DNA of 64,000 nucleotides from a bacterium (GCA_028278455.1 JANQEH010000058.1:906-64905); one strand, 5' to 3'; counted from the stretch's first letter, positions 20,757 to 22,280 are shown. Numbers and translations are program-made. Notes: generated from the letters alone by a model not told the origin.

Positions 20757-22280
20757 ATGGCGATAACACTGAATGGTTCATCGCTTACGGTAAATAAAAT
20801 AGTACAAATTGCCAGAAATAATGAAAAGGTGAAACTTGATGAAGATTCTCTGACCAGAATCAGGAAATGCCGAAAGGTGATCGAGAAGAAGATCGAGGCT
20901 GGTGAGATCATGTACGGCATAAATACCGGGATAGGAGAATTTTCTGAAGTGGTCCTTACGGATGAGCAGGTCAAAGAATTCCAGAAATACCTCATATATA
21001 ACCATTCTGCGGGTATAGGCGATCCGGCGCCTGTTGAGTACGTCAGGGGAGCGATGGCAGGCCGGATAAATGTTCATGCGCACGGTATGTCCGGATGCAG
21101 GCCGGAGATCACACAAACCCTGATTGATATGCTGAATAAAGGTGTAACCCCTGTAGTTTGCGAAAAGGGTTCTGTAGGAGCCTGCGGTGATCTGGCGCCG
21201 ATGTCCCAGATTGCCCTGCTTCTTATGGGAGAGGGTGAAGCATTTCTTAACGGAGAGAGGCTTCCGGGAAAGACAGCAATGGAACAAGCCGGGATACCCA
21301 TCCCGGGACTTAAGGCCAGAGACGGCCTTTCAACGATAAATGGCTCAAATCTGTTAACGGCCATGAGCGCAATACAGCTTTATGATATGAACAGGTGGCT
21401 AAAGCAGGCAGAGATCGCATGCGCTATGTCTCTTGAGGCGCTGTATGCTAATATGAAACCATATGATGAGAGGCTCCATAAAGTCCGCGGATTCAATGGA
21501 GCCGTCAGGTCTGCCGGAGCGATCATGAAATGTATTGAGGGCAGCGATCTGCTTTCCGGTAAAGTCAAAACTAAGGTACAGGATGCTTATTCAATGCGAT
21601 CAACTCCTCAGGTTATAGGTGCTGCGCATGATTCGATAGCATTTGCCAGAACACAGGTTGAAACAGAATTGAATGGTGTTGGCGACAATCCTATTTTTTT
21701 CCCTGATGAAGACCTTACTCTGACAGGCGCTAATTTCCAGGGAACGCCTGTCTCACTTCCAATGGAAAATGCCGGTGCTTCGATAACTATGGTCAGTGTA
21801 TTATCCGAACGGAGACTCAACAGGCTTACTAATCCGGCATTGAGTGTCGGCCTTCCCCCGTTTCTGACTAAAGGGGCGGGAATGTTCTCGGGTATGATGC
21901 TTAGCCAGTATACGGCAGATATGCTGATAACTGAGCAGAGAATTTTATCGGCTCCTGCATCTACAATGTCAATACCGGCGGCGGCCGACCAGGAGGACTT
22001 CGTGTCAATGGGGATGAATACGGCCTTGAAAAACCATCAGATTCTGGATAATGCTTACGGTATACTCGGAATAGAATTCATGGCAGCAGCACAGGCTCTT
22101 GACATGAGGGATTTTAACACCGGAAAAGGGGTTGAAACTGCAAAACAAGTTATTCGAAAATACGTAGAATATCTTGATGAGGATCGTCCGCTATATGTTG
22201 AGCATAACAGGATGAAAAAGCTTGTTAAATCCTGTGAGATACTAGACAAAGTGGAAAAAACAACCGGATACCTCGGGTGA
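20757..22280 (+). CDS. hutH: Histidine ammonia-lyase-like aromatic amino acid lyase, Ala-Cys-Gly MIO variant
   Basis: YGINTG, H83, GSVGACGDLAP, QDAYSMR..PQV, DNP, QEDFVSMG. Confidence 0.8.
   Translation: MAITLNGSSLTVNKIVQIARNNEKVKLDEDSLTRIRKCRKVIEKKIEAGEIMYGINTGIGEFSEVVLTDEQVKEFQKYLIYNHSAGIGDPAPVEYVRGAMAGRINVHAHGMSGCRPEITQTLIDMLNKGVTPVVCEKGSVGACGDLAPMSQIALLLMGEGEAFLNGERLPGKTAMEQAGIPIPGLKARDGLSTINGSNLLTAMSAIQLYDMNRWLKQAEIACAMSLEALYANMKPYDERLHKVRGFNGAVRSAGAIMKCIEGSDLLSGKVKTKVQDAYSMRSTPQVIGAAHDSIAFARTQVETELNGVGDNPIFFPDEDLTLTGANFQGTPVSLPMENAGASITMVSVLSERRLNRLTNPALSVGLPPFLTKGAGMFSGMMLSQYTADMLITEQRILSAPASTMSIPAAADQEDFVSMGMNTALKNHQILDNAYGILGIEFMAAAQALDMRDFNTGKGVETAKQVIRKYVEYLDEDRPLYVEHNRMKKLVKSCEILDKVEKTTGYLG

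Follow-up and report, generated by a model that had tools for sequence, protein, structure and literature searches.

The window analysed here, a stretch of 64,000 nucleotides of bacterial DNA (GCA_028278455.1, JANQEH010000058.1:906-64905), carries at positions 20757..22280 of its plus strand a gene for a protein of 507 amino acids, P0001, which its open reading frame, its translation, and a match to PF00221 identify as an ammonia-lyase of the 4-methylideneimidazol-5-one (MIO) type. P0001 most likely is a working MIO-dependent histidine ammonia-lyase (HAL) isozyme, in which an ordinary MIO would be built from a natural Ala-Cys-Gly (ACG) triad. During MIO formation the side chain of the triad Ser is lost as water after cyclisation of the backbone, and an engineered S143C variant of the HAL from Pseudomonas putida reportedly matures to a fully active enzyme. 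Comparison with its relatives shows that Cys in the MIO precursor is genuine, of natural origin, and widespread, and we consider it probable that the enzyme carrying it here is a HAL isozyme.

The MIO triad and active-site residues of P0001

The original prediction had singled out the MIO loop, encoded on the plus strand at 21171..21197 (tct gta gga gcc tgc ggt gat ctg gcg, residues S139-A147, SVG-ACG-DLA), and had read it as GSVG-ACG-DLAP with the triad at residues 142-144. Translation of the window bears this reading out, as the triad Ala142-Cys143-Gly144 (21180..21188, plus strand) is encoded by GCC (21180-82), TGC (21183-85), and GGT (21186-88), and Cys143 aligns to S143 of P. putida HAL. 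Cys143 is presumed to be the precursor of the methylidene carbon of MIO. HMMER aligns residues 3-210 of P0001 without gaps to P. putida HAL (Y53/Y53, H83/H83, C143/S143). Inspection for an X-Ser-Gly triad finds Cys as the middle residue and not the usual Ser of the family, with the loop and Gly144 conserved, and the residues of the MIO loop and its flanks, G138, S139, G141, A142, G144, and D145, are invariant or nearly so in alignment A1.

The catalytic and substrate-binding residues of HAL are all present in P0001 (Y53, H83, N195, Q275, Y278, R281, F327, M381, and E413); in the numbering of the P. putida enzyme, the retained residues include Y53, H83, N195, Q277, Y280, R283, F329, and E414. 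Assignments of the residues that bind the carboxylate and the imidazole of histidine follow a preprint (bioRxiv 10.1101/2025.08.13.670108). On the plus strand, the codon for Tyr53, at the position of the catalytic base of HAL, lies at 20913..20915 and is invariant in alignment A1. Asn82-His83 are encoded at 21000..21005, where the alignment makes His83 the imidazole-binding residue of HAL and places Asn82 where 98% of canonical HAL representatives have Ser. Phe327-Gln328 (21735..21740) align with F329-H330 of P. putida HAL; the Phe is kept, and the exchange of His for Gln at position 328 is diagnostic of the branch to which P0001 belongs. The codon for Glu413 (21993..21995) aligns with the imidazole-binding Glu414. 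Residues D145, Y280, and F329, at which mutants of P. putida HAL with solved structures (1gk3, 1gkj, 1eb4) probe the formation of MIO, are likewise kept as D145, Y278, and F327. The motifs QDAYSMR, NFQGTP, and QEDF occupy residues 275-281, 326-331, and 412-415. Alignment to P. putida HAL thus locates every element that had originally been listed as retained (Y53, H83, QDAYS.R, and QED), and the departures from canonical motifs noted at the same time are also real, TGIGEF standing for TGFG, YNH for SH, and NFQG for NFHG, all of them fixed in the branch.

P0001 scores 528.4 bits with PF00221 (cut-off 27.3) and marginally passes the NCBIfam HAL subfamily model NF006871 (528 vs. a cut-off of 524), with which seven other members of the branch score 522.6-541.2, one of them below the cut-off. 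Models for tyrosine and phenylalanine lyases and aminomutases are missed clearly, i.e., TIGR03832 (350.2 vs. 501), TIGR04475 (332.5 vs. 800), NF053541 (321.2 vs. 700), and TIGR01226 (219.7 vs. 519). An AlphaFold2 model of P0001, built on an alignment of 43 sequences, has a pLDDT of 93.5 and a pTM of 0.93, and its best Foldseek matches are the P. putida HAL entries 1b8f and 1eb4 (TM 0.94, rmsd 1.8).

Cys and Ser alternate at the triad

A scan of species-representative genomes located at least 576 stretches encoding relatives of P0001, the best 80 loci of which were used for codon and locus counts, and at the protein level P0001 was compared with its 120 nearest clusters at 90% identity, which are 79-88% identical to it. 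ACG is encoded at 53 of the 80 species loci (41 TGC, 12 TGT) and ASG (Ala-Ser-Gly) at the other 27 (TCC 12, AGC 8, TCA 3, AGT 2, TCG 2). Among the nearest clusters, ACG occurs in 95 and ASG in 24, and as P0029 reads AACGD, Cys is found in 96 of 120. An ordinary ASG gene in which TGC arose through faulty sequencing or assembly is hardly conceivable in view of these counts, although TCC and AGC are only one base away from TGC and the window stems from a metagenome bin with a completeness of 76%; Cys recurs in the other species with both of its codons, and TGC is also found at the triad in the same-family genome G051. The whole gene is identical in an independently built Logan contig of 18,232 nt from run X1, with a word depth of 10.9. 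This lends weak support, because X1 may be the source sample and the comparison is one of contigs. The codon is therefore no error confined to the window, and the closest homologs, for which a uniform ASG had been one conceivable outcome, carry Cys in their large majority as far as sequence goes.

A tree of the branch was built from 77 sequences, i.e., 76 loci and the window, leaving out L021 (truncated, 441 amino acids), L066, and two loci outside the lyase cluster. When the triad column was omitted from tree building, at least 16 changes between ACG and ASG are needed; with three outgroups and the triad column kept, the number is 18, and the well-supported branches alone force at least 10. 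On such well-supported branches, 11 independent pairs differ in their triad. The Ser states are scattered over the tree, the 16 rows with TCN requiring 13 changes and the 10 rows with AGY requiring 8. At position 143, neither Thr nor any residue beyond Ser and Cys occurs in the 80 loci and 120 clusters. Of 229 variable columns, the eight with the strongest association, the triad column among them, were examined; none co-varies with the state of the triad in the independent pairs, a comparison of low power with 11 pairs.

The same mixture exists in a second lineage around P0216, a canonical HutH equivalog (TIGR01225, 650.6 bits), as P0216 and its 119 nearest relatives comprise 57 proteins with ACG, 62 with ASG, and 1 that is unreadable. 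A motif scan of 150 family representatives gave ASG in 114, SSG in 9, ACG in 7, TSG and CSG in 1 each, and no triad in 18; alignment adds P0201 to those with ACG. P0201 and P0208, both outside the branch, have ACG together with RDALS where QDAYS is usual and SEDH where QEDH is usual, are without equivalents of Gln277 and Tyr280, and score 550.6 and 536.4 with the hutH equivalog model TIGR01225 (cut-off 539.15). In P0189, P0212, P0237, and P0242 the triad is deleted (GY---) and Tyr280 is replaced (QDALS), and these proteins look like MIO-less trimethylammonia-lyases.

Since ASG and ACG are mixed inside the branch as well as in a separate HutH lineage, ACG is not the hallmark of one subfamily. 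The original prediction of a natural subfamily of ACG lyases, for which a phylogeny of such enzymes had been proposed as a check, is thus upheld only in part: ACG is natural and P0001 does belong to a distinct branch with fixed substitutions, but with 27 ASG against 53 ACG loci and the repeated switches seen on the tree, ACG does not define it. Judged by the relatives compared, ACG is a recurrent, natural, and freely interchanging state, which is what elimination of the side chain during MIO formation would lead one to expect.

Distribution and constraint of the branch

A search of 1.84 billion cluster representatives places the closest clusters beyond the branch at 59, 53, and 49% identity to P0001, with ordinary HALs at about 40%. 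Branch members come from bins labelled Ignavibacteriota, Bacteroidota, Chloroflexota, Acidobacteriota, Zixibacteria, WOR-3, KSB1, Calditrichota, Myxococcota, Bacillota, and others, and are 69-81% identical to the window protein. In 13 genomes that possess both enzymes (78 genome pairs), branch proteins are on average 79.1% identical to each other and canonical HutH proteins 47.9%, and the branch protein is the more conserved one in 78 of 78 pairs. For 62 coding cores of 1098 nt that contain both anchor motifs, the proportion of synonymous differences has a median of 0.83 and a minimum of 0.43, and the non-synonymous median is 0.128. The GC content at third codon positions (GC3) of branch genes spans 0.20 to 0.93. 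On the branch tree, phylum labels are clustered, with 23 changes vs. a mean of 37.2 after shuffling, and a value as low was reached in 0 of 200 shuffles. The high synonymous divergence, the range of GC3, and the clustering by phylum speak against a recent spread; this is an ancient branch, passed on for the most part vertically and constrained with unusual strength.

Place in histidine degradation

Co-occurrence with the histidine utilisation (Hut) pathway was studied in the 40 genomes, out of the 80, whose loci have full flanks. A hutU gene passes its cut-off in 39 of these genomes and hutI in 36. No PF00221 gene besides the branch gene is present in 23 of the 40, among them the closed chromosomes G018, G029, G030, and G038, and there the branch enzyme is the only candidate source of urocanate; 22 of these 23 genomes possess hutU and 21 hutI. 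Regarding other PF00221 copies, an intact canonical hutH is present in 14 of the 40 genomes, another intact paralog in 1, and only fragmented second copies in 2. The second copies in G009 (C8:78619-80155, C4:1800-3190) and G027 (C3:536429-537858) are frame-split or contain stops and represent either a decaying canonical hutH or indel errors of long-read assemblies. The genome of the window itself encodes a canonical HutH of 512 amino acids on contig C183, which adjoins hutI and passes TIGR01225 with 621.7 bits. Its hutU is split over two contig ends (C177:1-1119 and C290:7296-7733, profile positions 173-545 and 2-147) and is probably one gene broken by assembly.

Genomic neighbourhood

On the same strand, 127 bp after the lyase gene, begins ftcD (22408..24240, plus strand; TIGR02024, 368.3 vs. 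a cut-off of 221), which encodes FTCD, a glutamate formimidoyltransferase fused to a cyclodeaminase-like domain that performs the last step of histidine breakdown. The same order of lyase and FTCD is found in the same-family genome G051 (L103). A scan of 20300-24400 for promoters and terminators gave counts at the level of shuffled sequence, with no plus-strand terminator-like site between the lyase gene and ftcD. Within 10 kb of the lyase gene, hutU occurs in 4 of 81 loci. In one of the 81, L047 from a Calditrichaceae bin, a urocanate hydratase-like gene of the long type (674 amino acids) lies directly downstream, and this is the only locus in which hutU is an immediate neighbour.

Directly upstream of the lyase gene, the window encodes a membrane protein of 581 amino acids (18663-20408, plus strand), residues 226-491 of which weakly match the YeiH family of putative sulfate exporters, below cut-off (70.7 vs. 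232.6 bits), and whose N-terminal 225 residues gave no match; in no other locus does this YeiH-like protein adjoin the lyase. An operon of four genes on the minus strand (14607-18331) lies 2.4 kb upstream of the lyase gene and codes for an MttB-family methyltransferase (16874-18331; TIGR02369, 366.8 bits, below the cut-off of 525) and three further proteins. Positions 16159-16905 encode a 248-residue protein with weak similarity to the activation domain of MetH, 15503-16141 a corrinoid protein, and 14607-15500 a homocysteine S-methyltransferase-like protein. Because its gene has no in-frame stop, the MttB homolog is a non-pyrrolysine protein and no trimethylamine methyltransferase. By its gene content, the operon looks like a split, corrinoid-dependent system in which homocysteine receives a methyl group from a quaternary amine. 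The same-family genome G050 (L100) has these four genes in identical order. As a partner of the lyase this operon was rejected, an MttB-like gene standing beside the lyase in 1 of 81 loci; in phmmer searches of the 81 loci, the YeiH-like, MttB-like, and corrinoid genes and an amidohydrolase gene are found beside the lyase in the window only. Four loci with MttB-like homologs, from 12 genomes of the phylum, have no lyase nearby, the relevant side being covered only in L099, by 4.9 kb. In G050 the operon occurs without a lyase in the 14 kb examined, and neither a lyase nor a YeiH-like gene is present in the 4.9 kb covered on the relevant side in G051. Farther upstream, a B12-binding radical SAM protein of 493 amino acids is encoded at 12087-13568 (plus strand), with sub-threshold matches only (HpnJ-like, 78.8 vs. 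577.6 bits).

Discussion

We infer from these comparisons that P0001 matures its MIO from Cys with release of H2S and that L-histidine is its substrate. The enzyme would be cytoplasmic and of the homotetramer type and would split L-histidine into urocanate and ammonia. Once the protein has folded, the backbone at Ala142-Cys143-Gly144 would cyclise and the side chain of Cys143 would leave as H2S, where Ser forms lose water, giving the same MIO as in textbook HAL; H2S in place of water would seem to be the obvious chemistry for MIO formation from Cys. Loss of the side chain should make Ser and Cys nearly equivalent, and evolution could flip between them through single-base changes from TGY to TCY or AGY. 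Urocanate would then pass to HutU and HutI, encoded elsewhere, and formiminoglutamate would be handled by the downstream FTCD. The free exchange of Ser and Cys, the invariant loop, and the conserved D145, Y278, and F327 fit the formation of MIO from Cys.

Several observations weigh against the assignment of P0001 as an ordinary HAL. With 494.9 bits it stays below the cut-off of the hutH equivalog model TIGR01225, and all eight branch members scanned, P0001 and seven relatives, fail this model (484-511). At sites that are conserved in canonical HALs, 20 substitutions are fixed in the branch, including F59I, N78Y, S82N, P135C, H151Q, C282S, G325A, H328Q, and S409A, and F59I, S82N, H151Q, C282S, H328Q, and S409A sit beside catalytic residues. 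FTCD was found in 0 of the 80 other loci when these were searched by phmmer with the window neighbours, and its role as a pathway neighbour is restricted to this lineage; clustering of 1033 open reading frames revealed no conserved Hut neighbour apart from the two same-family genomes, the largest neighbour cluster covering 13 of 81 loci. The presence of hutU and hutI in most genomes of the branch may simply reflect that these genes are common in the respective phyla. Canonical hutH occurs alongside the branch gene in 15 of 41 genomes, that of the window included, and this coexistence may mean that the two enzymes are not redundant. Finally, Cys exceeds a crude neutral codon expectation of about 25% (2 of 8 codons), being found in 66% of species and 80% of clusters; the Ser and Cys states may thus not be strictly equivalent, and Cys may be mildly favoured in the branch.

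Some of these points could indicate an MIO enzyme whose pocket is adapted to a related substrate other than plain histidine, e.g., N-alpha-methylhistidine, a histidine methylated on its ring, or a different aromatic amino acid. The 20 branch-diagnostic substitutions, with S82N next to His83, F59I, and the H328Q that gives NFQG, the failure with TIGR01225, a canonical hutH-hutI pair in the genome of the window and canonical hutH in 14 of 40 others, and a conservation so strong that it suggests a special constraint would all agree with such a role. Position 82 we take to be the selectivity switch between tyrosine and phenylalanine ammonia-lyases, and NFQG the form present in plant phenylalanine ammonia-lyases. 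However, this explanation appears rather unlikely. All residues that bind the carboxylate and imidazole of histidine, as assigned in the preprint (bioRxiv 10.1101/2025.08.13.670108), are kept; in 23 of 40 genomes the branch enzyme is the sole possible source of urocanate for HutU, which 22 of them encode; a ring-modified histidine would yield no urocanate; and FTCD is encoded downstream in this lineage. Also, Ser82 is kept in the nearest outgroups of the branch, P0121 and P0124. A pocket remodelled for a modified histidine, as first suggested, has gained no positive evidence, although the 20 substitutions near the active site leave the idea a small likelihood. That Cys is not merely tolerated but is the preferred MIO precursor is unlikely as well, even with its frequency of 66-80% despite the threefold number of Ser codons and the position of Ser mostly on the tips of the tree; the leaving group, sulfide or hydroxide, would in that case affect the speed or completeness of self-assembly. 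Together with the 20 second-shell changes and the exceptional conservation, this could mark a functionally distinct HAL isozyme, with a special maturation, regulation, or shifted substrate (e.g., N-methylated histidine), that is kept beside canonical HutH in some genomes.

Far less probable is that Cys143 is not converted at all and that P0001 works with the adjacent MttB operon, either as a trimethylammonia-lyase that has no MIO and takes histidine betaine or ergothioneine as its substrate, or with Cys/Ser143 as a nucleophile. Trimethylammonia-lyases do exist in the HAL family, a histidine betaine lyase of this family being described in bioRxiv 10.1101/2025.08.13.670108 and in a 2026 preprint; the ergothionase 6s7j matches P0001 with 212 bits, and an operon for an MttB-like protein, a corrinoid protein, and a methyltransferase is situated 2.4 kb upstream on the other strand. 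Yet the characterised trimethylammonia-lyases, according to the same two sources, are without the triad, whereas the triad of P0001 and its flanks belong to its best conserved parts, and ASG and ACG alternate freely in the branch. The MttB-like gene adjoins the lyase in only 1 of 81 loci, and the operon is maintained in G050 without a lyase in 14 kb; in G051, the 4.9 kb covered on the relevant side are free of a lyase or YeiH-like gene. Furthermore, the MttB homolog is of the non-pyrrolysine kind, and the N-terminus of P0001, judged by eye from its sequence, does not resemble a signal peptide.

If P0001 indeed is a HAL that builds its MIO from Cys, it provides a clean natural case in which the identity of a residue is free since its side chain is thrown away. 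A viable Cys intermediate would also bridge the serine codon sets TCN and AGY, because TGY is one base from TCY or AGY. In the literature searched, no paper on a natural ACG triad was found. PMC3903478 presents ASG as the strictly conserved MIO precursor, and a 2026 preprint states that ASG is required in all characterised ammonia-lyases. In two natural lineages, roughly half of the members or more carry Cys, and an annotation rule or motif filter that relies on ASG would therefore overlook genuine enzymes or label them wrongly, including those of an abundant HAL branch from uncultured lineages. The practical impact should be modest, because the mature enzyme is probably ordinary.

Among known systems, the ergothionase of Treponema denticola (6s7j) shares its fold with P0001 (TM 0.94), and this enzyme and Swoo_3913 of Shewanella woodyi, as described in bioRxiv 10.1101/2025.08.13.670108, share its imidazole- and carboxylate-binding residues; however, both are without the triad and need no MIO, whereas P0001 keeps the triad position and matches the ergothionase more weakly, with 212 bits. 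The canonical HutH of the window's own genome belongs to the same family and has the same catalytic residues, but is 39% identical and has ASG, TGFG, SH, and NFHG. The best sequence match among solved structures is the HAL of Thermoplasma acidophilum (7tqr; 306.9 bits, TM 0.91-0.95), whose deposited chain shows a matured triad; it stands outside the branch, with about 33% identity in the Foldseek alignment. HutH of P. putida (EC 4.3.1.3; 1b8f, 1gkm, and the mutants 1eb4, 1gk2, 1gk3, and 1gkj) resembles P0001 in fold, length, architecture, and catalytic residues, but the two are only about 33-39% identical, and P0001 differs by Cys in place of Ser143, by the 20 branch-fixed substitutions, and by its sub-cut-off score with TIGR01225. 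The engineered S143C form of the P. putida enzyme has the same Ala-Cys-Gly precursor as P0001; there it is a point mutation made in the laboratory, whereas in the branch of P0001 it is the natural and commoner state.

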